Source: Candidatus Rariloculaceae bacterium (GTDB taxonomy: Bacteria; Pseudomonadota; Gammaproteobacteria; Steroidobacterales; Rariloculaceae). From it: a DNA stretch of 64,000 nucleotides. Made by a program: the position numbers and the translations under genes. Shown one piece after another: positions 30,298 through 44,937 of this stretch (within the stretch, counting starts at the first letter, position 1; every line of letters starts with the position of its first letter). Location of the stretch: positions 325,604 to 389,603 of the forward strand of contig JBJKYL010000017.1 of NCBI GenBank assembly GCA_045561055.1, in the 5' to 3' direction. The notes beneath the pieces are model-generated. The model saw only the letters and a program-made list of their open reading frames with translations, did not search any database and was not told the DNA's origin.

Positions 30298-30364
30298 AAA
30301 AGCAAGATTATTGAAGGCGGAGACCGCGTGCTGAAGTGGTGGTCACTAGCTAGCAATCAAAAAA

Positions 30365-30388
30365 ACGGCACCTCCGAAGAGGTGCCGT
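30365..30388 (-). terminator. Rho-independent terminator (minus orientation) downstream of the TonB-receptor relic
   Basis: ACGGCACCTC-CGAA-GAGGTGCCGT. The U-tract is on the minus strand only (plus strand reads AAAAAAA just before the stem, 30358-30364). Confidence 0.7.
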
Positions 30389-30423
30389 TCGCAAAGACAC
30401 AAAAAATCTTTTCAGGGGTTTAG

Positions 30424-30735
30424 CTAGCCATCCCAGCTATAGTTCCACTCAAGACCCCACTGTGCGGGAGCACCGTGCCGATAGTCGAATACACCAGATC
30501 GCGAAGCGCCACAAACCTGAAAATATTCTGCGCCGTTTATATTGGAGCCGAATAGCGCAGCCTGCCAATTTTCAGATGCAGGTGCGTAGGTTACGCGGGC
30601 CCGGAACATTGAGTAGGCCTCCTGGTTACAATAAGAAGGACCGCCACCCACCTTACCGGTAGCACTACCACGGAAATCATAATCAGTCTGGGATTCGATT
30701 GATCTTCTTACTGAGCCCGAAATTTTCGTTAAAAG
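30424..30735 (-). pseudogene. C-terminal ~100-codon relic of a TonB-dependent receptor
   Basis: Open frame from the TAG at 30736-30738 reads ...QTDYDFRGSATGKVGGGPSYCNQEAYSMFRARVTYAPASENWQAALFGSNINGAEYF...GAPAQWGLEWNYSWDG*. These are the last beta-strands and aromatic C-terminus typical of TBDRs. No plug or barrel lies upstream; an unrelated gene ends at 30781. Confidence 0.65.
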
Positions 30736-30780
30736 CTAGAACAAAAATCGCTAATCATAACTAGTATGATCCCGCCACAA

Positions 30781-33156
30781 TTAGGTACTAGCGTTCATGC
30801 CCTCGAGCACACGTTGTGGCGTAAAGGGCGCTCGACGCATCCAAACACCAGTTGCATCATGAATGGCATTAGCAACTGCAGCGATCATCGGTTTATGACT
30901 TGCTTCGCCAGCACCATATGGCCGCAGATCGGCGCGCTCCGGTCTGGGGTCACCGTTCACAACAATGACTTCAATCGATTCCGGCGTATCCGAATGCCGG
31001 AGACTCGGGTAGGACGCCCAGTCGGTACTCGTCACTTTTTCAGTATCAAACCGAACCTCTTCCCAAAGTGCACGGCTTAGGCCGTGCAACATCGCACATT
31101 CGACAGTTTGACGTAGGCCTACGGGATTAATTACGAGCCCACAATCGTGAGCACAAACTAAACGCTTAACCCAGACACGACCGGTGTCACGATTGACCTC
31201 TACTTCGGCAACCGTAGCCACAATAGTGCCGTTACGAAATGTATAGGCGATACCGCGTCCGGGCAGAATCCGACCTACATTGACTCCTACGCTCAAATTC
31301 GGCGAGGGTCGCGAGTCCCATCCGTAAGCCTCTGCCGCAGCGCGAACAGTCGCGAGCGAACGGGCACGGCGAAAGAGGTCATCCTCGGTACTACGAGCCA
31401 ACATATCGAGACGAAACTCAACAGGGTCAGCCCTAGCTGCTACCGCCAACTCATCGATAAAAGACTCAAACGCAAACGTTACCTGGGGCCCATTCGGATC
31501 CCGTAAGTTGCCGGTACGAAGTGGCGTCTCCCAAATCATCGGAAGCTTGACGACTCGGGCGGTTAGCCGTCGGTTCGGAATAGCATACATATTAGACACC
31601 CTAGCAGCCGGCCCTTCGGCAGGGCTCTCAGGGCGAATGCCCATCAGTTGAGCAATTAGAACAGTGTGAGAATCGTTGTAGCCGAGATGATTATAGGCGA
31701 GCGCACGAGCATCGTATTCAAGCGCTACAATCTTGCCATCAGCGTCGAGCCCACCACGCAGTTTAAACGTATAGGCGGGACCCTTTGTATCCCACGCCGT
31801 CTCCTCATCACGCATCCACTGCAAACGAACCGGCACCCCCAGTTCGTGAGCCAGGAATGCCGCCTCAAAACCAACGTCATCAGCAGCGGAGCGACCATAA
31901 ACCTGAGGCCCGTCCATGTATACAACCCGCACTTGCTCCCTAGGCAAATTGAGAAACTCTGCAACACCGCTCCGCAAACCATAAGACTTCATATCATTTG
32001 AGTAGATCGTCATTTGACCATCGGAGGGATCAGCTAGCGCATGCGCCGGCCCGATCGCCGTATGGCCTTGAAACGGGACTTCATAATCCGCTTCTATAAC
32101 AAAATCAGCGTTCTCGAGTTCCGTATCTGGATTACCTTGAACGTCTCTCTCACGATTAGATGTAGGAATGGCATTTCGCATGTAGTCGAATAACTTATCT
32201 GATTCAGGAAATGGGGCCACAGACGGAGGTATCCATACTGCCTTCAACTGTTGGGCGGCATTGATAGCCTGCTCTTCTCGCTCACTGACCACCGCTAGAT
32301 AGTTCCCGCGATTAACTACCTGGACGAAACCCGGCAAACCTGAAACCGACGATTCATCGATGCTTTGCAGGGTTGCGCCAACGACTGGCGGTCTTACATT
32401 CCGCGCATGCACCATACCCGGCAACTTCACATCAGCAGCCCAGGTTAGCGAGCCGTCAACCTTAGCTGGGATGTCGTACCGCTGAATTGGCTGCCCAACC
32501 ACGCGAAGCTCATTGACCGGCTTTACGTCAGCTACTCCACGAGTAGCATTAATATTGTCGCCGGTCAGCCCAATCTGAAACCTCTCTCCGCCTAAGAGCT
32601 CAGCGTAGGAAACCGATTTGGCTGTGTCTAGCTTCGAGGAAATCATCGCGTCACGAACCGTAAGCCCGTCCACCGGGGTATTTAGTTGATCGGAGGCAAG
32701 TTCTAGTAAGACGCGCCTTGCCTCAGCAGCCACCCACCGCATCGGCCAGCCATCACGCTCAATAGCGTCCGAGCCTCCCGAGCCTCCTTGATCAGGCGTC
32801 GTGTCAGTACTGCCCATGATGAGACTCGTTTTGTCATAAGCAATGTCAAGTTCGTCACACATCATCTGTCGAAACGCGGTGCCAGTGCCCTGACCACCAT
32901 CGGTCTTGCCAAGGAAAAATGTCGCGGTGTTATCGGGGTGGATAACGATCCATGTGTCAAGCTGCAGAGGATCTGGATCTGGGTAAAGCCCTTCGCCTGC
33001 AGCCTGTGCAAGTGCTCGCCCCACTGGGGTAGCACTAAAGCTAAAGCTAACGACTAGGGCACCAGAAGATTTCAGGAAGCTCCGTCGCGAAGCAGTAGGA
33101 TTAACTGCTAGAAGTGTCTCCTCAAGAAACTTCGGAAGCCGAAGTACACCGCTCAT
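30781..33156 (-). CDS. Tat-exported molybdopterin-binding subunit of an IorB-type aldehyde/heterocycle dehydrogenase (xanthine dehydrogenase family)
   Basis: 791 aa. Twin-arginine motif SRRSFLK plus an h-region, then IPAKVDGSLTWAADVKLPGMVHARNVRPP and later Mo-cofactor domain patterns. ATGA overlap with the upstream 2Fe-2S subunit gene. Confidence 0.85.
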   Translation of the reverse strand: MSGVLRLPKFLEETLLAVNPTASRRSFLKSSGALVVSFSFSATPVGRALAQAAGEGLYPDPDPLQLDTWIVIHPDNTATFFLGKTDGGQGTGTAFRQMMCDELDIAYDKTSLIMGSTDTTPDQGGSGGSDAIERDGWPMRWVAAEARRVLLELASDQLNTPVDGLTVRDAMISSKLDTAKSVSYAELLGGERFQIGLTGDNINATRGVADVKPVNELRVVGQPIQRYDIPAKVDGSLTWAADVKLPGMVHARNVRPPVVGATLQSIDESSVSGLPGFVQVVNRGNYLAVVSEREEQAINAAQQLKAVWIPPSVAPFPESDKLFDYMRNAIPTSNRERDVQGNPDTELENADFVIEADYEVPFQGHTAIGPAHALADPSDGQMTIYSNDMKSYGLRSGVAEFLNLPREQVRVVYMDGPQVYGRSAADDVGFEAAFLAHELGVPVRLQWMRDEETAWDTKGPAYTFKLRGGLDADGKIVALEYDARALAYNHLGYNDSHTVLIAQLMGIRPESPAEGPAARVSNMYAIPNRRLTARVVKLPMIWETPLRTGNLRDPNGPQVTFAFESFIDELAVAARADPVEFRLDMLARSTEDDLFRRARSLATVRAAAEAYGWDSRPSPNLSVGVNVGRILPGRGIAYTFRNGTIVATVAEVEVNRDTGRVWVKRLVCAHDCGLVINPVGLRQTVECAMLHGLSRALWEEVRFDTEKVTSTDWASYPSLRHSDTPESIEVIVVNGDPRPERADLRPYGAGEASHKPMIAAVANAIHDATGVWMRRAPFTPQRVLEGMNAST

Positions 33157-33698
33157 TCGATCGCCTCGGGTTCATTGGCTGCTACAGAAGCGGACAGAAT
33201 CGACGAAGCAGCTTGTTCGTCACTATCCAGCACAGTACCTGTCATCATGCTCGCCGCTCGTTTGATCGCAGCCTGAATTCGGTAATAAGTCATACAACGA
33301 CATAGCACGCCTTCCATCCCCTCACGGATTTCGGCGTCGGTGGGGTTTGGATTCCGATCCAGCAGTGCTTTTGCGTTCATAATCTGGCCATTCTGACAAT
33401 AGCCACACTGCGGCACCTGCTCGTCTATCCAGGCCTGCTGTATTGCATCGAGCTGACCATCGTCTGAAAGTCCTTCCAGCGTCGTAATCTCTCCCCGTAC
33501 CTCCGCCGTAGGCAAGATACAAGAACGAAGAGCAATGCCATCAACGATAACGGTACAAGTACCACACTGGGCAAGACCGCAGCCAAAACGTGGGCCCTGC
33601 AGTCCAAGATCGTTGCGCAGTGCGTATAGCAAGGGCATCGATTCGTCGATATCCACTTCATGGGTTGCACCATTTACACGTAACTTGACGATACTCAT
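33153..33698 (-). CDS. [2Fe-2S]-binding small subunit (IorA/CoxS-like)
   Basis: 181 aa with CGLAQCGTCTV, QCGYCQNG and LCRCMTY cysteine clusters. No signal peptide, so co-export with the Tat subunit is likely. Confidence 0.9.
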   Translation of the reverse strand: MSIVKLRVNGATHEVDIDESMPLLYALRNDLGLQGPRFGCGLAQCGTCTVIVDGIALRSCILPTAEVRGEITTLEGLSDDGQLDAIQQAWIDEQVPQCGYCQNGQIMNAKALLDRNPNPTDAEIREGMEGVLCRCMTYYRIQAAIKRAASMMTGTVLDSDEQAASSILSASVAANEPEAIE

Positions 33699-33743
33699 CT
33701 TTTGACCTCCGGGTAGGCAGTCACCCTTGACAGCCGCAATCGC

Positions 33744-34109
33744 CTACTGAATCCCAGACAGCTCTGGAATATCTTCAATCGCGGGTGGCTCTGGTACCGC
33801 GCTAACGAACTCGAATATTTTCTGTAGATCCTCATCACTCAAAACATCTGGTGAATAGGCTGGCATGAGGTTTGTATGTCGAACCAATGCAGCAAACGCT
33901 ATAAAGGGATAAATGGTCGGTGCGATACGCACCGCAGCCCCACCCTGCCCTTCATATCCGTGGCATTGCCAGCATTGATTAACGTTGTATAACTCCCGGC
34001 CCTCGTTCGCCGTATCACTAATGTCTTGCCCAGCAACTGTGGTGGATAGGAATCCCAACACGACCCAAGCTAGAAGCCATAGGTGGTTCATTGCTCTATA
34101 GCCCATCAT
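33744..34109 (-). CDS. Monoheme c-type cytochrome
   Basis: Single CWQCH heme motif and a signal peptide (MNHLWLLAWVVLGFLSTTVAG). I start at ATG 34109, which has a GAGAGG Shine-Dalgarno 8 nt after the TPP-enzyme stop; the track starts at 34133. Confidence 0.85.
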   Translation of the reverse strand: MMGYRAMNHLWLLAWVVLGFLSTTVAGQDISDTANEGRELYNVNQCWQCHGYEGQGGAAVRIAPTIYPFIAFAALVRHTNLMPAYSPDVLSDEDLQKIFEFVSAVPEPPAIEDIPELSGIQ

Positions 34110-34117
34110 TTTGCCTC

Positions 34118-36076
34118 TCACCGCGGCTGGCAAACGACATCGACGAGCGCTGGCTCACCCTGATCAACGACATCGATAGCACGCGCAAGCGCCGCTTTAA
34201 CATCTTTAGGGTCCGTTATCGGCCCCTCCGACCAAACACCCATTCCGGCCGTTATCTGAGCGAAATCTGGCGCCGGATTGTTCAGCTCGTTACCCACAAG
34301 CGAACTCCCGTCGATTCCTCGTTGTCTCCGCGCAGCCATACGTTGCAAATGCATAAATTCCTGATGATATCCTCGATTGTTATGCATGACGGTTAACATT
34401 GGGATCTTATGATACGCGGCAGTCCAGAATGTTCCGGGCACATACATCATGTCGCCATCACGCTGAATATTAATCGCAAGGCGTCCGGCGTCACGGTGAG
34501 CTAACGCCGCGCCCAAAGCTGAAGGCGCACCATAGCCTAAGCCCGCTCCCCCTGAACGGCCGATATATTGATAGTGTTGATCGACAGCCCATAACCGTCT
34601 CGCCCAACGACTTTGAGAATTATCGTCGGAGACAAGCGCCCAGTCGCGATCTTTCACAAGATCCCATAGCTCCATATAAAGCCGTGCCGTGCTGACAGGG
34701 CTTGAATCCCATCCGTAGCGCGCTGCATCAATACTCGCAGTACGCGCCAGCGCATGTGCTGCTCGCCAGCGCTCTTCACGCTGCGCATTACTCGCACGTC
34801 TGGCTCTGGTCATGTAGCGACGAACGGCCTCCGTCAATGCTGGTAGAGAAGTCTGTCCGTCACCAGCAATTGAGAGATCAGCGGCATTATAACGCTGGAA
34901 ACTTTGATAATTAGACTTCGTGAAAAGATCCTTTACTCCGATGTCGATGACGCGGACATCAGGTCGCGCCGTGCGTAGCGAATCACGATGAACGCGGTCA
35001 CGAACCGTGTTGAGAATGCCCCAGGTGTCATAGAGCTCAAGACCTAAAACAACATCAGCCTGCGCGATTACATTAGCTCCCTGAGACAAATAGTGCGTGT
35101 TAGGAAAATTCACTCGACCGAATTGGTTATAAATAGGAGCCTGCAACTCTTCAGCTAGTTCGATAAGCGCATCAATCCCATCCTGATTGTGCGCCATGAG
35201 ATCTACCGCAATAGCCGGAGATTCAGCTTCAACAAGCCAACGTGCAGCTTCATCCAGTGCAGAAAGATCACCATGCGGTGGCTGGGTTGGTGCAACACCC
35301 GGTATCGTCGGTGCCTGGTCACCAACTTCGCCTTCCTGGAGATGTCCGTCGATAATAACGACTACTGGCCCCATCGGTGGCGTAGTCGCAATTTTATAGG
35401 CACGCGCCATGGATTCGGAAAAGCCTTGCAAAGACAGGGGCGCGTCATCCCACTTCGTATAGTCTCTAACCACTCTTGCCGCATCCTGCGCCGAGTGCGA
35501 CCACTCAACTCCCGTACGTCTTTCAGTTGCCTCTAGATGATTGCCACCAAGTATGAGCATTGGGGACCGATCACACCACGCATTATAAATAGCCATGGAC
35601 GCATGCTGTAAGCCGACAGTACTGTGAACAAGTACCGCTAGTGGCTGTCCAGCGGCGGCCTTAGAGTAGCCATGTGCCATTGCAACCGCTTGCTCTTCAT
35701 GCGTACAGGTTAATAATTCTGGTGCCGTGTTCTTACCGTAATTAACAACAGATTCATGTAGCCCGCGGAAACTCGAACCGGGATTCGTCGTCATAAAGTC
35801 AAAACCGATGTCTTTGATGACATCAACCATGAAATCGGAACCTGGGTGCCGAACAAAATACTCCATCGCCTCGTCGGCACCGTAACCATCGGGCGTACCA
35901 GACTCCATCGCCTCCTGAGCAGCGGTTGGCGGTGATACAGCGGTCTCCTGCCCGTTAGTTGCACCACCCTCCTGCGCAGCAGCAGGTTTGGTCAATGCTG
36001 CAGCGGCAACGCCAGCTGTCGCAGTAGAAAGAAACTCACGGCGATTTACGCCCTCTGGCTTTTCTTCGTCTTTCAT
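34118..36076 (-). CDS. Tat-signal-bearing thiamine-diphosphate-dependent enzyme (acetolactate synthase / benzoylformate decarboxylase superfamily)
   Basis: 652 aa. N-terminal NRREFLSTATAGVAAAALTKPAAA|QE is a twin-arginine signal. Then a TPP_enzyme_N-like region (THEEQAVAMAHGYSKAAGQPLAVLVHSTVGLQHA), a middle domain and a C-terminal PP-binding region (GGAGLGYGAPSALGAAL...NNRGY). Confidence 0.8.
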   Translation of the reverse strand: MKDEEKPEGVNRREFLSTATAGVAAAALTKPAAAQEGGATNGQETAVSPPTAAQEAMESGTPDGYGADEAMEYFVRHPGSDFMVDVIKDIGFDFMTTNPGSSFRGLHESVVNYGKNTAPELLTCTHEEQAVAMAHGYSKAAAGQPLAVLVHSTVGLQHASMAIYNAWCDRSPMLILGGNHLEATERRTGVEWSHSAQDAARVVRDYTKWDDAPLSLQGFSESMARAYKIATTPPMGPVVVIIDGHLQEGEVGDQAPTIPGVAPTQPPHGDLSALDEAARWLVEAESPAIAVDLMAHNQDGIDALIELAEELQAPIYNQFGRVNFPNTHYLSQGANVIAQADVVLGLELYDTWGILNTVRDRVHRDSLRTARPDVRVIDIGVKDLFTKSNYQSFQRYNAADLSIAGDGQTSLPALTEAVRRYMTRARRASNAQREERWRAAHALARTASIDAARYGWDSSPVSTARLYMELWDLVKDRDWALVSDDNSQSRWARRLWAVDQHYQYIGRSGGAGLGYGAPSALGAALAHRDAGRLAINIQRDGDMMYVPGTFWTAAYHKIPMLTVMHNNRGYHQEFMHLQRMAARRQRGIDGSSLVGNELNNPAPDFAQITAGMGVWSEGPITDPKDVKAALARAIDVVDQGEPALVDVVCQPR

Positions 36077-36240
36077 TACAGCCCCTGTATTTGGAGAGCG
36101 AGAATGAACCTAGAAGCATAGAACGTGGAGCGTTTGTTTACCACTTTGAACGCCCCCTAAGGACCCTGCCACGCTCCTCTCTAAAAATATTTTTTATTAT
36201 CTGTCATGATTGCCGCGAATCTTAATTCTAGTGGAAACCA

Positions 36241-37167
36241 CTAGGTAATTGCTCGATTGTAGTAAGTTAGATCAATATATCGGTCGATATTGCGGAGCGC
36301 CTCTTCCGTTTGCATGTAACAATTACGCAGGTCGAGAACAGTCTTCATCCCCAATCCATCTAGCGCAGCGAGGGGTGTCAAGCCGGTCTCGGGAGACAAC
36401 AACTTGGCCATAACCGCGTCCACAACACCGTCCTTTATCGCAGGCATGTTCTTCTGTAACGTGACAACAGCTTCATCATAATTATTTGGCTCTAAAGTCC
36501 ACGCCAGACCCTCAAGATAGCCTCTAATGAACGCTATCAGCGAATCGCTATGAGAAAACGCCCAATTACGGCTAACCACAAAAACCCCCCCTTGATAGCG
36601 TTTTAAAACGCTACGGCTATTCGCAAGCACCCGAAACCCATTAGCAATAGCGACACTCGTGAATGGCTCAATTGTCAACGTTCCAGCATGCTCACCCGCT
36701 TTGACCGATTCCCAACGTTGAGGGGTCGCACCGACCGGAACTTTTTTATAGTCGTCCTCACTGAGCCCAGCCTTCTCCAACATTCGATAAAGAACAAAAG
36801 CGAAACCTGTTGCTAGCGCATCTAACGCAAGCGATTTACCGTGCAAATCGTTGAAAGACTCAATCTCTGGAGCTACGACAAGCGATAACTCGAGTTGGGT
36901 AGCCCCCATAAAGGCAAATAGGTCTGGGCTTTCCTCAAAGCTGACCGCGCCCTGTCCTTCCTGATAAGCGACAACATTATCGAACGCGGTTGCGCCAATT
37001 TGAAAAGCGCCTTTTATGAGCGATTCGGCCTGATAACTAGAGCTCGGGGTCGTTTCAAGCAAAACATTTACCCCAGCAGCCTCAAAATAACCGCGCTCCA
37101 TTGCGACGAAGATCGGTAAATTTGGTGCGCCGGGAAAAGCAATAAGCCTTAAAGGATCAATAGTCAT
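36241..37167 (-). CDS. NMT1/THI5-like (SsuA-fold) protein without signal peptide
   Basis: I use ATG 37167 (MTIDPLRLIAFPGAPNLPIFVAMERGYFEAAGV...), which overlaps the CoxL-like stop (ATGA). Periplasmic-binding-protein type II fold pattern, but no N-terminal hydrophobic leader. Confidence 0.7.
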   Translation of the reverse strand: MTIDPLRLIAFPGAPNLPIFVAMERGYFEAAGVNVLLETTPSSSYQAESLIKGAFQIGATAFDNVVAYQEGQGAVSFEESPDLFAFMGATQLELSLVVAPEIESFNDLHGKSLALDALATGFAFVLYRMLEKAGLSEDDYKKVPVGATPQRWESVKAGEHAGTLTIEPFTSVAIANGFRVLANSRSVLKRYQGGVFVVSRNWAFSHSDSLIAFIRGYLEGLAWTLEPNNYDEAVVTLQKNMPAIKDGVVDAVMAKLLSPETGLTPLAALDGLGMKTVLDLRNCYMQTEEALRNIDRYIDLTYYNRAIT

Positions 37168-39534
37168 GCGGCGCGCGCAGATTGAATTGTCTGCCAAACA
37201 CGGTAAGGTGTCGCGGGTAACTCAATGTCGGTAACGCCGTATTCTCTTAGCGCATCAACAATCGCGTTGATGACAACAGCTAACGCTGCTGTCGTCGGTC
37301 CCTCGCCACCAGATTTAATGCCTAGTGGATTAGTCGGAGACAATACCTCGTTCAACTCAGTGATAAAGAAAGGGAAATCATCTGCACGTGGAATGGTGTA
37401 GTCCATTAACGAGCCCATCAGCGGTTGCCCGGATTCTCGATCGGTAAGGCACTGCTCCCAGAGAGCTTGCCCTACACCTTGAGCAATAGAACCGTGTGTC
37501 TGACCATCTACAATCAAGGGATTAATAACACGACCGACATCGTCAACAGCAACATATCGCTTGATAAGGGTAACACCTGTTTCAGGATCAACCTCTACTT
37601 CACAGACAGCACAACCGTTAGGGAAGACCGGGGTGTGCATCTCGTTATCCTTCGTAATACTGAGACCACCAGCTAGATCACCAGAGAGCTGCATCTTGCT
37701 TGCTTGCTGCGCTAACTCAAACCAATCCAAAGATTGATCCATAGTACTGAATTGGCCATTTGAAAAGTCAACCTCCGTCTCATCGCTACCAAAGGCAAGT
37801 CCGGCAATTCGGCGACCGCGATGGATGAGTTCTTCAGCAGCGAGGCAAATCACTGTCGCCGCATGACGCATCGATCGTCCTGAGTGGGAGCCGCCACCAA
37901 AACTCACAACATCCGTATCGCTCGTCACAATCTCTACCAAGTCTGTTCGGATCCCCAACACGTCCGCTGCTACCTGCGCGAAGCTGGTTTCGTGACCTTG
38001 CCCAGTAGGTTGTGTACCGACAATTACTGACACAAAACCTGCTGGGTTTACATGCAATTCAGCACGCTCGGAGGGAGCACCGATTGATGATTCTACGTAA
38101 TTTGCAATACCGATTCCGCGGCATTTACCTTGCTCCTGAGCCTTCGCTCTGCGGGAAGAAAATGTTTTCCACTCAGAAAGCTCAAGCGCTATGTTCATAT
38201 TCTCCGTGTAATCACCGCTATCATAAAAAATGCCAAGAGGGTTTTTGTACGGCATCGCGTCAGTTTTTACTAGGTTACGCCGCCGAAGTTCAATTGGATC
38301 AATTTTTAGCTCATACGCAACGGTATCGATTAACCGTTCCAGCGCGTGAATGACCTCGGGTCGACCAGAACTTCGATAAGCTTGCGTCGGGACGGTATTG
38401 GTGAAGACCGCCCTAGCGCGAGCAGTCGCAATTGGAATATCGTATCCCCCTGTCACCAAAGCGATGCCTTTTCCAAGCGGCGATAGCGACACTACACGTG
38501 CACCCACATTACTCACATTAGAAGCACGATAGGCGAGAAACTGGCCATCTTCTGCAACCGCGAGTTCTACAGTCGTTACGAGGTCACGACCTTGGAGATC
38601 ACTGACAAAAGAATCAGCACGAGTCGCCGTAAACTTTATTGGCCGAGTCAGCTTACGAGATGCCCACAACACGAGAGCGAACTCAACATAAACGCGGTTT
38701 TTGGTTCCAAAGTTACCACCAACATCATGACAAAGGATTCGTACCGATTCCGGCTCAACTCTTAAAGCTTTCGCTATTTGTTGTTTGTGCCTTACAGCAC
38801 CGTTACTTCCAGCATATAGGGTATAGCGCGCATTTTTTATATTGTAATCGCCAAGCGCTGCGCGTGGCTCAAGAGGAACGCCGGTTACACGACTAATCCG
38901 AAATCCCATACTAAAAACATGCTCTGCATTATCGAAAGCCTTATCAGTAGCCAAAGCGTCACCGAAAGTCGTATCGCAGCAAACATTGTCAGGCACCTCA
39001 GTCCAAACAATTGGCGCCCCAGACGCCGCTGCAACGACGCTATCCGATACCGAAGCAAGCGGTAAGTAATCCACTTCAACGACCTCGGATGCATCCAATG
39101 CCTCGCTACGCGTCGCTGCAATGACCATCACAATAGCCTCCCCAACATGCCGAACCTTGTCTTCAGGTAATAACACTTGCGGGCCGACAAAGATGTCTCC
39201 GCCACCAGGGGATTTGAGCTTAAGATCCGTACGAGTTGACGGTACGGGGTTGTGCGGAACGGCCCCGAGTCGATCAGCCCGGCAATCTGCGCCTGTATTA
39301 GACGGCGAGAACGCCGGGCATCTCTATAGCAGAAGCTGTATCTATGCTAACGATTTCGGCATGTGGATACGGTGAGCGGACAAAAGCAGCATATACCTGA
39401 CCAGGAGAATTAAAGTCATCGGTGAAGTGCCCCCGCCCCGTTATAAGCCTTTTATCCTCTTTTCGCGGAACCGGTTTTCCAATGCTCGCAAGTAAACCCT
39501 TGTCGATATTTCCGTCAGCTTCAAATATCGACAC
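37164..39534 (-). pseudogene. CoxL-like molybdopterin-binding subunit (xanthine dehydrogenase family), interrupted by one frameshift at ~39297-39300
   Basis: ORF 39298..39534 is the typical N-terminus (GKPVPRKEDKRLITGRGHFTDD...FVRSPYPHAEIVSID...MPGVLAV*). The frame of ORF 37164..39176 stays open upstream and reads SNTGADCRADRLGAVPHNPVPSTRTDLKLKSPGGGDIFVGPQVLLPEDKVRHVGE. Joined length is ~789 aa. Confidence 0.8.
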
Positions 39535-39594
39535 TAACCATCATCCTCTATATTGCGGACCGGAGTCTCTGGCTTTATGCCTCCGCGCCGGCGT

Positions 39595-41178
39595 TCAAAA
39601 CGTTTCCATGCCATTTTCTGCCCAGCGCCCCGCCACCGCGTTCTGCGCAAATTGCTCCCAGCTCTCATTCCAATCTCCCAACGAATAACCATACCAGGGT
39701 GACTTTGGTGAAAGCGGTGGCAGCTCCAATTCTTCCCAAATCGCGCGCGCGCCCTCCATGTATAACTTCGTTGGTAACGCGAGCGGTGGCATCGATACTT
39801 TCCGCGTAGCATCGATCAATATTCCCGAATCATTACCCGTCCGACCTGACTTCGGTCCATGGCCTACAGCCCGATCTGGGATTATCTCAAGATCATTGAC
39901 GGGGTTCGCACGATAAGCCATCGACCAAAAGATGGCATCAGTGTTCGAAGGGTCGATATCGCGACTTACCGCTATTACAATTTTTCCACATTGCGCCTGC
40001 AAAGTCGCTGCACCTTTCAACCCTCGCCAGACTTCTTCTCTCGGTGTGTCATCATCAAACTGCAGAAAAATAACCGGTCGAATGTTGGTAAGCGGTTCAT
40101 GCATCGAAACGCGCCTAATACCTTGCACTTTTAACTCGTCGCGTAGATGGGCTAGAAACAACGGCTCATAGGCTACCTTTTTTAAAACGCTCGACTCGCT
40201 AGGAGTAACCTGGCTGATAATCGATGCGAAGACCGCATTCTTTTTATGTGTTATTGCTGTAACTTTCATACCCATGTTGAAATCTTCAAGCGCAACGTGT
40301 CCGTGACTTTCACCAAACGGACCTTCGGGCTCTAATAATTCTGTGTCAATTACGCCCTCTATCACAATCTCCGCGTCAGCTGGCACCATCAGATCAACCG
40401 TCTTCGCCTGAACAACGCGAATTGGTGTGCCAGCCAGACCACCTGCAACTTCCATCTCATCCTTTCCAATAGGAAGTTTTTGAGGGCCAGTAAATGCAAC
40501 CACTGGCGGTGCTCCGACGACGATCGCAACTGGCATCGATTCACCGCGAGACTGATATTTTTGCCAATGCAGATACCCGCCGGCACCTCCGATACGCGTT
40601 GCCATACGCACCCCAAGTCGGTCCGGCGCTTTTAACGCACCACGGTAAGTACCCATGTTTGCTATACCAGTCTCAGGATCTTTGGTTATAACTAGTGTCG
40701 CAGCGAGATATGGCGCCGCATCATAGCCCGGTGTTGAAACAGGCACTGGCAAACGCCCCAGCCCATTACCGGGCAATTTCAATTCCTCTCCCAGAACGAT
40801 AATTTCCTGACAAGCAGGAGAGTCCGTTAGTTCAGCAGCAATCGGGTTCGCCATCGCATGTAACCATGCTGCGCCGATACCATCGATTTCCACACCCATC
40901 CCTATCGCGTAAATTTCCGGTGTCGCGGCTAGCGCACCAACGGCGACCGGCATATCATAATGTCGACCATCACTATCCGTTACGTTCGTAAAAAGAAAAG
41001 CTCGACGCTCAGATTCCGGAAGACCGCCCTGAAACTGCCAGCGAACGAGCGGGTGCAGTTCAGTATCTTTATTAATAGGCCGTTCTATGCGATGAAGAAG
41101 ACCGCGCGCCTCTAGTGTCGCCAGATGCGCCTGAAAATCCGGATACTCAACCCGGCTCATTGACAATTCTAGTAGCAA
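39595..41178 (-). CDS. UbiD-family (prenylated-FMN-dependent) decarboxylase
   Basis: 527 aa with UbiD-like patterns along its length (LHRIERPINKDTELHPLVRWQF..., ...GPFGESHGHVAL...). The start codon is uncertain (TTG 41178 or ATG 41160). Confidence 0.8.
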   Translation of the reverse strand: MLLELSMSRVEYPDFQAHLATLEARGLLHRIERPINKDTELHPLVRWQFQGGLPESERRAFLFTNVTDSDGRHYDMPVAVGALAATPEIYAIGMGVEIDGIGAAWLHAMANPIAAELTDSPACQEIIVLGEELKLPGNGLGRLPVPVSTPGYDAAPYLAATLVITKDPETGIANMGTYRGALKAPDRLGVRMATRIGGAGGYLHWQKYQSRGESMPVAIVVGAPPVVAFTGPQKLPIGKDEMEVAGGLAGTPIRVVQAKTVDLMVPADAEIVIEGVIDTELLEPEGPFGESHGHVALEDFNMGMKVTAITHKKNAVFASIISQVTPSESSVLKKVAYEPLFLAHLRDELKVQGIRRVSMHEPLTNIRPVIFLQFDDDTPREEVWRGLKGAATLQAQCGKIVIAVSRDIDPSNTDAIFWSMAYRANPVNDLEIIPDRAVGHGPKSGRTGNDSGILIDATRKVSMPPLALPTKLYMEGARAIWEELELPPLSPKSPWYGYSLGDWNESWEQFAQNAVAGRWAENGMETF

Positions 41179-41270: not shown

Positions 41271-42302
41271 GTGCGGATGCATAGTAAAACCTTCTATCTT
41301 TCTATTTTCTCAATCCTAACGGCTAACGTAGCGCTCTCACAAAACGTCTCCGATTATTTCGAAGATCGCACAGTAACAATACTTGTCGGTTCAGGTCCTG
41401 GCGGTACTACAGATATTTCTGGTCGCGTCATTGCAGAACATCTTCAACGACATTTTCCCGGCAACCCTCGGATAATCGTACAAAATATTCCGGGTGGCGG
41501 AAGCATCACTATGACAAACCAGCTCTACCGCTCGGCACCAAGAGACGGAACAGTGCTGGGTTATTCCCTTCCCGGAATTATCACTGCACAAATAATGGAA
41601 CCGACGCGGACTAGATTTGATGGACGGGAAATAAACTGGATCGGGTCGGCACTAAAATACACAGGAATCGTATCGGTTATAAGTACGGCATCTGCGACTA
41701 CTATTGGGGAAGCAACCAACACTGAGCTCTTCATCGGAACAACAGGACGAGGCTCGCCTGCCCATCAGTTTCCCGCGTTAGCAAAAGCGTTACTGGGCTT
41801 AAAGTTCAACATCGTTACCGGTTATGAAAGCAGTAATGATGTCGTTTTTGCGATGGAAAGGGGTGAAGTTGACGGACAATCTAGTAGTCTTCAGGCTTGG
41901 GCGATAACTCGACCTAGCTGGCTGAGCGATGGTCGAATAACCCACCTACTGTATATGGGACCACCTAATCCACTCGCGGAACCTGGCGTACCATATCTAC
42001 GGGATCTAATTTCTAGTGAACGCGACACGGCACTTGTAGATTTTATTGAAATTGGCCCTCAGATGGGATGGCCATTGTTTGCGCCGCCTGGAGTTCCTTA
42101 TGATCGAATAGACGCATTACGAACAGCATTTGCCTCTCTAATGATAGACCCCGAATTTATTTATGCTATTAACTCTATAGTCAAGGCACAATTACAACCT
42201 ACTGTAGGTAGTGAACTAGAGCTCTTTGTGGAACAAGCTCTCAAAACACCAAACAACATTGTGTCTGAAGCAAGATCTATCCTAGGACTAGACGGAAGAT
42301 AA
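41271..42302 (+). CDS. Tripartite tricarboxylate transporter substrate-binding protein (TctC/Bug family)
   Basis: About 340 aa. Signal peptide, GSGPGGTTDISGR and NIPGGGS motifs typical of the Bug/TctC family. Confidence 0.85.
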   Translation: MRMHSKTFYLSIFSILTANVALSQNVSDYFEDRTVTILVGSGPGGTTDISGRVIAEHLQRHFPGNPRIIVQNIPGGGSITMTNQLYRSAPRDGTVLGYSLPGIITAQIMEPTRTRFDGREINWIGSALKYTGIVSVISTASATTIGEATNTELFIGTTGRGSPAHQFPALAKALLGLKFNIVTGYESSNDVVFAMERGEVDGQSSSLQAWAITRPSWLSDGRITHLLYMGPPNPLAEPGVPYLRDLISSERDTALVDFIEIGPQMGWPLFAPPGVPYDRIDALRTAFASLMIDPEFIYAINSIVKAQLQPTVGSELELFVEQALKTPNNIVSEARSILGLDGR

Positions 42303-42309
42303 TAAATCT

Positions 42310-44367
42310 ATGTTTGAGATGGCATTAAGTGCGCTCGAGATCGTCTTTGACCCTTCACGACTTATGTTTGTGGCTCTAGGAGTCATCATCGGTCTAGCGC
42401 TTGGGGTCATCCCAGGACTTAGCGGGATTGTCGGTCTATCTTTGCTTCTACCATTTACATTCAATATGGACCCATTCACGGCGCTTGCATTCCTAGTAGG
42501 ACTACAGGCGGTTGTCGCCACGTCAGACACCATTCCAGCAGTACTATTTGGTGTGCCAGGTACCGTTGGGTCAGCATCTACGATCCTCGACGGCCACCCC
42601 ATGGCAAAACAGGGTCTAGCGGCGCGCGCTTTTGGAGCGGCTTTCTCTGCATCAGTACTTGGTGGACTTCTCGGTGCCCTTTTTCTAGCTTTAAGCGTCC
42701 CAATCTTGCGACCGTTCATTCTAAGTTTCGGCTCCCCCGAGCTTCTCGCCTTTTGTATATTTGGATTGTCATTAATTGGCGTGCTAAGTGGCGGTAACGC
42801 GCTAAAAGGATTAGCTGCTGCTGCGATTGGGCTAATGATTGCTACCGTCGGTGAGGAACCGAATACGGCAATCGAACGTTGGACTTTTGGCTCTTTATAT
42901 CTTCTTGAGGGGATACCGCTTGTACCCTTAGCGCTCGGATTATTCGCAATCCCGGAGATTGCAGAAATGACAATCAGTAAACGAGCTATACGAAAAGATC
43001 TTAGCGCTGCTACCGTAAAGGGGCAATTAGCAGGGGTCAAGGATACGTTATCCAACCTATCTCTTGTGTTCCGTGGCTCGGCAATTGGAAGCACTTTAGG
43101 CGCTGTACCCGGTATTGGTGCACCAGTAATTCCATGGATCGCTTATGGACACGCAATGCGAACAGAGAAAGGTGCTACAGAAACTTTCGGTAAAGGAGAC
43201 GTCCGCGGAGTAATTGCATCTGAAAGCTCAAACAACGCTAAAGAAGGCGGCGCACTGGTCTCTACAATTGCTTTTGGTGTGCCTGCCACGGCTGCAATGG
43301 CGTTATTACTTGGTGCTTTTTTGATTCATGGACTCTCTCCAGGTCCCGAAATGCTCACGGCTCGCCTAGATGTAACCTATACGCTTGTTTGGACAGTTGC
43401 GTTAGCAAATGTGCTTGGATGTGGGATCTGTTTCATCTTTGCGCAACAACTTGCCGCAATCGCCCGCATTAGAGTAGGCATTCTAGCTCCCGTCGTACTA
43501 TCGATTATTTTTATTGGTGCTTATCAAGCAACACGCCAGTGGGGTGATGTTGTCGCCTTACTCGGATTTGGACTGCTTGGATGGGCGATGAAACGGGCGG
43601 ACTGGCCAAGACCCCCATTGTTGCTCGGTCTCGTGCTCGGCGGATTGCTAGAACGCTATATGTTTATTTCTTTCCAACGTTATGACACTGAATGGCTCTT
43701 TCGACCAATTGTCATCGGCGTCTTACTAATCACGATCTACAGTGTCCTAAAACCTATTGTTACTGACCTAATAAAGCGTCGCGGGGATCCGGCCGCTAAA
43801 TTAATTTTTCGATTCAAACCGCAGAGTGCCGATTCAGCACTCTGGTTTAACGTGGCAGTAATCGCGTTTTTCTTAACTGCAATTGCCGGCTCATGGCAAT
43901 GGGACTTTGGTGCACGACTTGTGCCACAAATCGTTGGCTGGCTAGGCCTTCTCCTCGCCTCATGGCAATTACTAGTCACATTATTTATCAGCACGAAGTC
44001 TACTCCTGTGACGAACGCCTCTGATGGATCCGGGTCTAGCATGCACAATACAGACATGCCATCGAAGCTAGATGGCTTCAATGACATTGAATCATCACAA
44101 TCCACCGTTCGCTATTTTGCATGGTGCTTCTTTACCCTCGGCGCCGCACTACTAATCGGTTTGCTACCCGCAATTCTCATCTTCTTATTAGGCTACCTAC
44201 GTATAGAGGCAAAAGAAGGTTGGAAAACAACTTTAGCGGTTAGTCTCGGTGTATGGAGCGCGTCCTATTTTCTTTTTCACCAGTTGCTCAGAGTGCCCTG
44301 GCCCGCTTCGTACATTGGTGACTTTCTACCCGCCCTTAGAGCCTCGAGCATCACCAACCTTCTTTAG
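42310..44367 (+). CDS. TTT transporter large permease TctA with a C-terminal TctB-like extension
   Basis: 685 aa. The first ~500 aa are TctA-like (GVIPGLSGIVGLSLLLPFTF..., GAVPGIGAPVIPWIAYG...). The last ~180 aa add about 4 more TM helices (WFNVAVIAFFLTAIAGSW..., VRYFAWCFFTLGAALLIGLLPAILIFLLGY...) with a TctB-like topology. No separate tctB gene is present. Confidence 0.8.
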   Translation: MFEMALSALEIVFDPSRLMFVALGVIIGLALGVIPGLSGIVGLSLLLPFTFNMDPFTALAFLVGLQAVVATSDTIPAVLFGVPGTVGSASTILDGHPMAKQGLAARAFGAAFSASVLGGLLGALFLALSVPILRPFILSFGSPELLAFCIFGLSLIGVLSGGNALKGLAAAAIGLMIATVGEEPNTAIERWTFGSLYLLEGIPLVPLALGLFAIPEIAEMTISKRAIRKDLSAATVKGQLAGVKDTLSNLSLVFRGSAIGSTLGAVPGIGAPVIPWIAYGHAMRTEKGATETFGKGDVRGVIASESSNNAKEGGALVSTIAFGVPATAAMALLLGAFLIHGLSPGPEMLTARLDVTYTLVWTVALANVLGCGICFIFAQQLAAIARIRVGILAPVVLSIIFIGAYQATRQWGDVVALLGFGLLGWAMKRADWPRPPLLLGLVLGGLLERYMFISFQRYDTEWLFRPIVIGVLLITIYSVLKPIVTDLIKRRGDPAAKLIFRFKPQSADSALWFNVAVIAFFLTAIAGSWQWDFGARLVPQIVGWLGLLLASWQLLVTLFISTKSTPVTNASDGSGSSMHNTDMPSKLDGFNDIESSQSTVRYFAWCFFTLGAALLIGLLPAILIFLLGYLRIEAKEGWKTTLAVSLGVWSASYFLFHQLLRVPWPASYIGDFLPALRASSITNLL

Positions 44368-44405
44368 CTCTCACTGAATTCTGTAGAGAGTTCATCCCTA
44401 TGATC

Positions 44406-44891
44406 TTAATCGCCTCTATCAAGTAACAAGACGCCGTCTTCATCGACAAAAACTCGATCGCCGGGATGGCACACAGTATCGTCGAACATTATCGACAACT
44501 CTACCTCCCCAACATCTTTGCGTATAGACTTCTTCGGCGTTGTGGCAAGCGCGATGAGACCGATGTCGAGTTTAGCTAGTGCCACGCTATCTCTAACGCA
44601 ACCGAAAATGACAATACCTTCCCATCCGTTATCACAAGCCATCCCCGCTATCACGTCGCCTACGAGCGCACATTGATATGAACCACCTCCATCCACGACC
44701 ATAACTTTGCCATCACCCGGCATCTGCACGAGTTCACGGACACGGGAGTTATCTTCAAAACATTTAATAGTCGTCGCAAATCCGGAGAATTTTGTACGAC
44801 CACCAAAATGGGTGAGAACCGTAGACGGCACCCGCGCCCTCGCCAGATATTCATCGTAGAGATCACAAGTAGAAGTGAAATCGCAACTCAT
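44406..44891 (-). CDS. rraA: RraA-family protein (RNase E regulator / RraA-like aldolase fold)
   Basis: About 161 aa from ATG 44891 (MSCDFTSTCDLYDEY...). It is colinear with my recollection of E. coli RraA (CDIY..., ITVKCFEDN, VLVVDGGGS, NEWEGLVIYGAVRD). Confidence 0.85.
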   Translation of the reverse strand: MSCDFTSTCDLYDEYLARARVPSTVLTHFGGRTKFSGFATTIKCFEDNSRVRELVQMPGDGKVMVVDGGGSYQCALVGDVIAGMACDNGWEGIVIFGCVRDSVALAKLDIGLIALATTPKKSIRKDVGEVELSIMFDDTVCHPGDRVFVDEDGVLLLDRGD

Positions 44892-44937
44892 CAATTTTTC
44901 CTTCAAACATTAGAAACGTAACTCATACACGTTTTGT

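Follow-up and report, generated by a model that had tools for sequence, protein, structure and literature searches.

A conserved twin-arginine leader and a dedicated cytochrome c suggest a periplasmic thiamine diphosphate-dependent dehydrogenase in a Rariloculaceae bacterium and its distant relatives

Our subject is a pair of genes on the minus strand of a 64,000-nucleotide stretch of DNA from a Candidatus Rariloculaceae bacterium (GenBank assembly GCA_045561055.1, contig JBJKYL010000017.1, positions 325,604 to 389,603), the whole of which we call the window. The first gene encodes an enzyme of the thiamine diphosphate (ThDP, also thiamine pyrophosphate or TPP) superfamily, here called the TPP enzyme, which begins with a twin-arginine (Tat) signal peptide, and the second encodes a small c-type cytochrome. 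The leader is conserved, the pairing with cytochrome c is conserved across phyla and the catalytic motifs of the enzyme are intact. We propose, with a probability of about one half, that the two proteins form a two-component periplasmic ThDP-dependent dehydrogenase, most likely one that carries out the oxidative decarboxylation of 2-oxo acids. The combination of a twin-arginine leader with an adjacent cytochrome c gene recurs across phyla and is far beyond chance. Its presence in hundreds of bacterial species suggests that the pair is an undescribed type of respiratory dehydrogenase.

The TPP gene (34118..36076, minus strand) encodes 652 amino acids. It matches the Pfam domains TPP_enzyme_N and TPP_enzyme_C above their cut-offs (66.6 and 81.7 bits) and TPP_enzyme_M just under the cut-off (26 against 30.4 bits). 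After its stop codon TGA come 8 nt (gaggcaaa) and the ATGATG that opens the cytochrome c gene (33744..34109, minus strand, 121 amino acids, Pfam Cytochrome_CBB3). The first-pass annotation of this DNA had described four minus-strand open reading frames (ORFs), these two and the two subunits of a molybdenum (Mo) dehydrogenase of the IorAB type, and a check of the reading frames found all four where it had placed them. Its 8-nt gap between the TPP and cytochrome genes holds for the first ATG (34109). The cytochrome start is however ambiguous, and gene callers on contigs with an identical TPP protein choose the third ATG (34091), with which the protein has 115 amino acids and the gap becomes 26 nt.

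The N-terminus of the TPP enzyme carries the leader MKDEEKPEGVNRREFLSTATAGVAAAALTKPAAA, directly followed by Q-E, exactly as first annotated (residues 1-34, 35975..36076, minus strand). It consists of an n-region with N-R-R-E-F-L-S, a weakly hydrophobic h-region and a predicted cleavage site with A-A-A before Q-E, which together make up the signature of a Tat substrate (an S/T-R-R-x-F-L-K-type motif, a weak h-region and AxA). The Kyte-Doolittle value of the h-region is 0.97 for this leader, 1.04 for the Tat leader of the IorB subunit of the window and 1.99 for the Sec-type leader of the cytochrome. An RR-x-F-L motif falls within the first 60 residues of 111 of the 120 best database homologues, which have 59-91% identity, and the remaining 9 are truncated gene calls. 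In a second set, drawn from the Burkholderiales/Sphingomonadales branch, 111 of 120 homologues likewise have the motif. It is also present in 67 of 70 full ORFs from the genome loci described below, and most of the exceptions are starts that were truncated or called wrongly. R12, R13 and F15 are invariant in an alignment of 26 sequences, and in a library of cluster representatives the leader is still found in members with as little as about 41-52% identity. Beyond these come relatives with 35-42% identity, which are 560-610 amino acids long, begin right at the PYR domain and have no leader.

We also computed a neighbour-joining (NJ) tree from the mature region only. All 29 leader-bearing sequences fall within one clade of 34, the other 5 members of which are N-terminally truncated, and the 64 leaderless relatives fall outside it. 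Because the leader is conserved residue by residue and its bearers form a single clade, we conclude that it defines a subfamily and is not an artefact of the chosen start, an objection that the first-pass annotation had itself raised. Its suggestion that the TPP enzyme is a Tat substrate thus gains weight, the candidate being both conserved and defined by its leader. Individual departures were also seen. Locus L021 (9983-11746, Acidobacteriota) has a 588-amino-acid ORF without the leader and still has the cytochrome c gene next to it, and locus L008 (2214-4241) reads N-S-R-E-F-L, having lost one arginine of the twin pair. In the window itself (35905-35925, minus strand) an AGGAGG stands 2 nt before the in-frame codon of Met57, just past the signal peptide. 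A typical ribosome-binding site would lie farther from its start codon; a leaderless cytoplasmic isoform is conceivable.

The second line of evidence is the company that the TPP gene keeps in other genomes. A pattern scan with one genome per species gave more than 590 loci, and those listed belong to Gamma-, Alpha- and Betaproteobacteria, to Acidobacteriota and to further groups, with the clade ranging over marine Gammaproteobacteria, soil Acidobacteriota, Burkholderiales and Sphingomonadales. Neighbourhoods were counted in the best 80 of these loci, which were searched with the proteins of the window, and 77 were assessable for the cytochrome, the contig ending too early at the other 3. A cytochrome c homologue lies directly downstream of the TPP gene on the same strand at 58 loci and within 2.5 kb in another arrangement at 11, so that it stays with the TPP gene at 69 of the 77. 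These loci span Gamma-, Alpha- and Betaproteobacteria as well as Acidobacteriota. The gaps between the two genes are short or the genes overlap, and the pairing persists in deep members with 52% and 42% identity, which have a 9-nt gap and an overlap respectively. When all neighbours within four genes were clustered, the cytochrome was the sole widely common one. The reciprocal look-up gave the same picture from the other side, with cytochrome homologues of other genomes preceded by a gene of about 665 amino acids. This gene is a TPP enzyme by Pfam at L090 and L091, and at L089 it has no Pfam match on record. No cytochrome c gene adjoins the two leaderless sister proteins that we examined. Leader and dedicated cytochrome are therefore present together and absent together, which suggests that enzyme and cytochrome work as one periplasmic unit in which the cytochrome is the redox partner.

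The first-pass annotation had coupled the TPP enzyme to the IorAB-type dehydrogenase as well, and this coupling proved not to be kept in evolution, since IorAB flanks the TPP gene at 3 of the 80 loci. The order is IorA-IorB-TPP-cytochrome c at L010 and L032 and TPP-IorA-IorB at L033, where the cytochrome was not detected; a further locus, L036, has IorA and IorB homologues 5 kb from the TPP gene. The closest relatives of the window (L001-L004 and L019, about 70% identity), and also L090, have no IorAB. They keep the UbiD, CoxL-type subunit, NMT1-like, TPP and cytochrome genes, and the genes downstream of these differ. Because the pairing is kept without IorAB, the cytochrome belongs first to the TPP enzyme. 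Judged from gene order, the TPP enzyme has cytochrome c as its dedicated partner and IorAB as an occasional companion.

Several loci show variations on the pair. At L054 (7794-12303, Rhodospirillaceae) two TPP-cytochrome c pairs stand in tandem, at L020 (8039-11905) a second and very divergent TPP gene (25% identity) lies just upstream, and Paraburkholderia acidicola has three TPP paralogues (P0392, P0416 and P0417). Two apparent TPP-cytochrome fusions, P0128 and P0131, contain the signal peptide of the cytochrome itself or frame-shifted junk, and we set them aside as read-through or assembly artefacts. Cultured strains of Paraburkholderia, Burkholderia and Sphingomonas carry the pair, which makes it open to experimental testing.

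The cytochrome has the features of class I c-type proteins. Among 38 orthologues C46, C49, H50, R77, M82, P83 and Y85 are invariant, the haem-binding C46-W-Q-C49-H50 and the M82-P-A-Y motif are each found in 37-38 of them, and a Sec-type leader precedes the domain. In the window the partner is a 12-kDa monohaem protein, as it is in most lineages, and in Burkholderiales and Sphingomonas (L092, L093 and L068) it is a dihaem protein of 206-217 amino acids. The window cytochrome weakly matches the PchC cytochrome (1dii_C, E = 0.006), and no similarity was found between it and the cytochrome subunit of the membrane-bound aldehyde dehydrogenase (ALDH).

The TPP enzyme itself belongs to the superfamily of ThDP decarboxylases and pyruvate oxidase (POX). 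It combines PYR, middle and PP domains in a single chain, and a Foldseek comparison of its AlphaFold model confirms the fold. It does not group with any characterised cytoplasmic enzyme, all NCBIfam scores being below their cut-offs. The best model is the uncharacterised PRK08327 type (NF006203, 246.2 bits against a cut-off of 456), followed by the benzoylformate decarboxylase (BFD) model NF005485 (158.2 against 493). The pyruvate oxidase model (68 against 742) and the models for acetolactate synthase, Xsc and glyoxylate carboligase (GCL) are all far under their cut-offs. No curated NCBIfam family claims the enzyme and no solved structure covers the TPP-cytochrome pair. Database names are generic, such as 'thiamine pyrophosphate-binding protein' or 'acetolactate synthase large subunit'. 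The best PDB matches are BFD-type enzymes, with E = 3e-26 from the sequence and 2e-34 from a family profile. The AlphaFold model has a mean pLDDT (predicted local distance difference test) of 74, with the leader and several loops disordered. Foldseek matches it about equally to BAL, BFD, GCL and CDH, at about 20% identity and TM-scores of 0.62-0.69 (query-normalised) or 0.72-0.80 (target-normalised), and from these matches lyases, decarboxylases and carboligases cannot be told apart as relatives.

More can be said from the active site, whose integrity the first-pass annotation had left to be checked. The cofactor-activating glutamate is intact, E127 being invariant and aligned with E47 of BFD, and the Mg-ThDP motif D540-G541-D542...N566-N567 is intact and invariant or nearly so. 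S101, H151 and H363 align with S26, H70 and H281 of BFD and are conserved, although the alignment around H363 falls in a divergent region. These BFD-like residues together with the intact cofactor motif point to the chemistry of a 2-oxo-acid decarboxylase. Three features are additional to those of BFD. The mature N-terminus has a conserved extension, about 80 residues that include a long helix are inserted (about 383-462), and an invariant loop rich in His and Arg occupies 570-587. A search for clade-specific residues that could serve in docking the cytochrome gave, besides the leader, only M83, V86, S195 and N389.

In the mechanism that we propose, the ThDP enzyme would take up its cofactor and fold in the cytoplasm before its export by Tat, and the small cytochrome would be exported by Sec and matured in the periplasm, where the two would interact. 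A 2-oxo acid would be bound and decarboxylated on ThDP using the BFD-like Ser/Glu/His/His set. The resulting carbanion/enamine would then be oxidised by cytochrome c in two one-electron steps, rather than being released as an aldehyde alone, giving a carboxylic acid and electrons that enter the respiratory chain. Alternatively the enzyme might oxidise an aldehyde directly on ThDP with the same electron flow. This chemistry has precedents. PoxB and POX oxidise the ThDP intermediate through flavin adenine dinucleotide (FAD), several ThDP enzymes do so with ferricyanide, and CDH couples ThDP chemistry to an oxidation. A wider claim, which we put forward tentatively and hold to be somewhat less probable, is that ThDP is here the cofactor that oxidises the substrate, in a periplasmic respiratory dehydrogenase of wide distribution, with the electrons passing directly to the dedicated cytochrome c or through an unseen flavin. 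In the window, the IorAB or membrane-ALDH-type Mo dehydrogenase has been added to the operon and probably uses the same cytochrome c.

A number of observations weigh against a redox partnership of this kind. No member of the Tat-TPP clade has been characterised and a redox role is not demonstrated for any of them. No cytochrome c homologue was detected near the TPP gene at 8 of the 77 assessable loci, and a fusion search found no genuine TPP-cytochrome fusion. Only 2 near-invariant cysteines stand out in the TPP-enzyme alignment, in which no motif for Fe-S or another additional redox cofactor is visible. A PDB search with the middle domain by itself gave a weak match (E = 0.03 to CDH), which does not decide whether this domain binds FAD, and because of this the path of the electrons from ThDP to haem is unexplained. 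The active-site residues are almost identical in the leaderless sister clade that has no cytochrome. Lastly, the equivalent of BFD His281, which in BFD protonates the enamine, is conserved and would suit a plain non-oxidative decarboxylase equally well.

Three other explanations have to be considered alongside the dehydrogenase. The first-pass annotation had proposed a two-step route, in which an exported non-oxidative TPP decarboxylase or lyase releases an aldehyde, IorAB oxidises it and cytochrome c is the acceptor of IorAB. The four genes are tightly packed in the window, IorAB flanks the TPP gene in varied orders at L010, L032 and L033, which is above chance for a gene pair with a few copies per genome, the best PDB matches of IorAB are to an aldehyde dehydrogenase, and the equivalent of the enamine-protonating His281 of BFD is retained. 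XDH-family Mo subunits also lie near the module at 15 of the 80 loci, a count made over about 10 kb around the module with no background control and with L001-L004 and L019 being related lineages. As a conserved unit, however, the route is not supported, with IorAB beside the TPP gene at 3 of 80 loci. The cytochrome stays next to the TPP gene at 69 of 77 loci that have no IorAB, the closest relatives lack IorAB, and at L033 IorAB follows the TPP gene where no cytochrome c was detected. For this particular window we regard the route as conceivable but rather unlikely.

The TPP enzyme could also catalyse a non-redox periplasmic reaction, such as a carboligation or the breaking of a C-C bond in a diketone or acyloin, with the cytochrome serving a dehydrogenase elsewhere or having a structural or regulatory role. 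Its nearest structural relatives do include the lyases and carboligases BAL, GCL and CDH, and the missing redox motif and the catalytic residues shared with the cytochrome-less sisters would fit such an enzyme. A cytochrome family that accompanies the TPP gene across phyla as its sole conserved neighbour, often translationally coupled to it, is harder to reconcile with this, and no other dehydrogenase is consistently nearby, so that we consider the non-redox role improbable. The remaining explanation is that the leader is no working export signal, the protein being cytoplasmic, made from an internal start or held in the membrane by an uncleaved anchor. The AGGAGG before Met57, the database entries that begin downstream of the leader, the leaderless ORF at L021 and the S-R in place of R-R at L008 would all fit. 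However, the conservation of R12, R13, F15, the h-region and AxA to about 41% identity means that the leader is translated and under selection, and the leader is found where there is a partner cytochrome that is itself exported, whereas relatives without that cytochrome lack it. We give this explanation very little credence, and we return to the dehydrogenase reading in what follows.

Comparison with known systems shows where the proposed dehydrogenase is familiar and where it departs from precedent. With BFD (MdlC; PDB 1BFD and 4Q9D), BAL, GCL and CDH the TPP enzyme shares the three-domain PYR, middle and PP fold, and with BFD also conserved residues that align to S26, E47, H70 and, in a divergent stretch, H281. 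It differs from BFD, a cytoplasmic enzyme, in having about 20% identity to it, about 75 extra N-terminal residues (the Tat leader and the conserved mature extension), the insertion of about 80 residues and a dedicated cytochrome c partner. The nearest model is the leaderless TPP-requiring family (NF006203 / PRK08327-like), with 35-42% identity and nearly the same conserved residues, but its members have neither leader nor adjoining cytochrome c and form a separate clade in the NJ tree. Pyruvate oxidase and PoxB share the superfamily and the proposed chemistry, by which a 2-oxo acid yields an acid, CO2 and 2 electrons on ThDP. PoxB requires FAD and is found in the cytoplasm or bound peripherally to the inner face of the membrane, and these enzymes pass electrons to O2 or quinone, whereas the acceptor of the TPP enzyme would be a periplasmic cytochrome c.

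An architectural parallel is given by the flavocytochrome c dehydrogenases, sulfide dehydrogenase FccAB and p-cresol methylhydroxylase PchCF, in which a cofactor-loaded catalytic subunit works in the periplasm with a small c-type cytochrome that is encoded next to it and exported separately. The TPP-cytochrome pair would be built in the same way, but its catalytic subunit is not homologous and would use ThDP in place of flavin. For the one-electron chemistry there is a precedent in pyruvate:ferredoxin oxidoreductase (PFOR), where metal centres close by, in that case Fe-S clusters, take electrons one at a time from the ThDP-bound intermediate. PFOR differs in its unrelated architecture, in having Fe-S instead of haem and in being cytoplasmic and oxygen-sensitive.

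Full-text literature searches found no description of an exported ThDP enzyme or of a ThDP-cytochrome c pair. The thiamine match that came up in a survey of Tat substrates was an unrelated lipoprotein. To our knowledge the characterised ThDP enzymes all work in the cytoplasm or in the matrix of an organelle, and we know of no list of Tat cargo cofactors that includes ThDP. If the proposal is true, it would add a new class of periplasmic dehydrogenase to those using pyrroloquinoline quinone, flavin, molybdenum or haem, and ThDP would join the cofactors that Tat carries across the membrane. Thousands of annotations as 'acetolactate synthase large subunit' would then need correcting. Should the pair be a dehydrogenase, it would provide a new entry of electrons from organic acids into the respiratory chain, with a probable bearing on the breakdown of aromatic and lignin-derived compounds. 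Bioelectrocatalysis could also take an interest in it, as a ThDP enzyme that nature has already connected to a one-electron acceptor.

The Mo enzyme that follows the pair in the window is of the IorAB or membrane-ALDH type, as first annotated. The 2Fe-2S small subunit (33153..33698, minus strand, 181 amino acids, Pfam Fer2 and Fer2_2, no signal peptide) has 8gy3_B as its best PDB match (E = 2e-47), and the molybdopterin large subunit (30781..33156, minus strand, 791 amino acids, Pfam MoCoBD_1 and MoCoBD_2) matches 8gy3_C over its full length (E = 1.3e-48). The cytochrome gene is separated from IorA by 45 nt that include a GGAGG, and the junction sequence bears out the ATGA overlap that joins the IorA stop to the IorB start. 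The Tat motif described for IorB is also present, its N-terminus holding ASRRSFLKSS with the motif SRRSFLK. A 2Fe-2S small subunit with a Tat-tagged large subunit carrying the molybdenum cofactor, and no FAD subunit, is the composition of this enzyme type. The likeness to AldFGH, the membrane-bound ALDH of acetic acid bacteria (8GY3), and to IorAB extends to the 2Fe-2S and Mo subunits, to the Tat motif on the large subunit and to a small subunit that presumably hitch-hikes on it.

A multihaem cytochrome c, either as a subunit or as a domain, is part of enzymes of this type. The window operon differs from AldFGH in having no multihaem cytochrome gene, its one cytochrome being the 12-kDa monohaem protein of the TPP gene. 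No multihaem subunit or fused domain was found for IorAB in the operon, nor beside the IorAB genes of L010 and L032. Since IorAB has no cytochrome of its own, the simplest reading is that it shares the TPP-linked one, and we consider that it probably does so.

The neighbourhoods of the pair also give some indication of the substrate. Counted in the same way as the XDH-family subunits above, Amidohydro_2 genes are near the module at 13 of the 80 loci, UbiD at 11, Tct transporter genes at 10 and class II aldolase at 8. In Sphingomonas panacis (L093) the pair lies between LigB/LigA genes and a TonB receptor, a LigXa-like Rieske oxygenase, a GST and an Amidohydro_2 gene. In Paraburkholderia fungorum (L092) it comes after two Amidohydro_2 genes, a dicarboxylate symporter, a porin and an RraA-like aldolase gene. 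The window has an RraA-like gene and TctABC-type genes upstream of the module. One leaderless relative adjoins a gene for a flavin mononucleotide (FMN)-dependent 2-hydroxy-acid dehydrogenase, and BFD likewise adjoins an FMN-dependent 2-hydroxy-acid dehydrogenase in the mandelate pathway. These neighbourhoods suggest the catabolism of aromatic or heteroaromatic acids, and taken with the BFD-like residues they make an aromatic 2-oxo acid (an aryl-glyoxylate) our leading guess for the substrate. The divergent upstream genes of the window (41271-44906) encode a 343-residue protein without a Pfam match in a TctC-like position, a fused TctA-TctB of 685 amino acids and the RraA-like aldolase. At L010 and L032 the IorAB-TPP-cytochrome clusters have Tct genes alongside them as well.

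Directly upstream of the TPP gene on the same strand, outside the core module, is a block of UbiD, CoxL-type Mo subunit and NMT1-like genes (36241..41178, minus strand), which is conserved in the closest gammaproteobacterial relatives (L001-L004, L019 and L090). The CoxL-type gene stands alone, with no CoxS or CoxM beside it, and the NMT1/THI5-like protein has no signal peptide. A metagenome contig, L081, is 99.97% identical to the window, and against it the window shows single-base indels, with one T too many at 39597, one A too many at 39298 and one G too few in a run of G at 36153. The extra T stops the UbiD gene early, and the extra A shifts the frame of the CoxL-type gene at about codon 78, leaving a 670-amino-acid ORF where L081 has 789 amino acids. 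These indels are probably assembly or sequencing errors rather than signs of pseudogenes.

Counts of promoters and terminators in the region were not above those of shuffled controls. Neither the promoter-like site found at 36225-36196 nor the weak hairpin found at 34159-34142 has evidential value. The sole convincing terminator-like site downstream of IorB is a hairpin followed by a run of T at 30363..30390 (minus strand), which has a 12-bp stem with 7 GC pairs and lies about 390 nt past the IorB stop, making it the likely transcript end. The roughly 390 nt in between (30391-30780) hold no convincing ORF. The hairpin stands where the convergent IorB and SPFH/Band-7 genes face each other, and the transcripts of both could end there.

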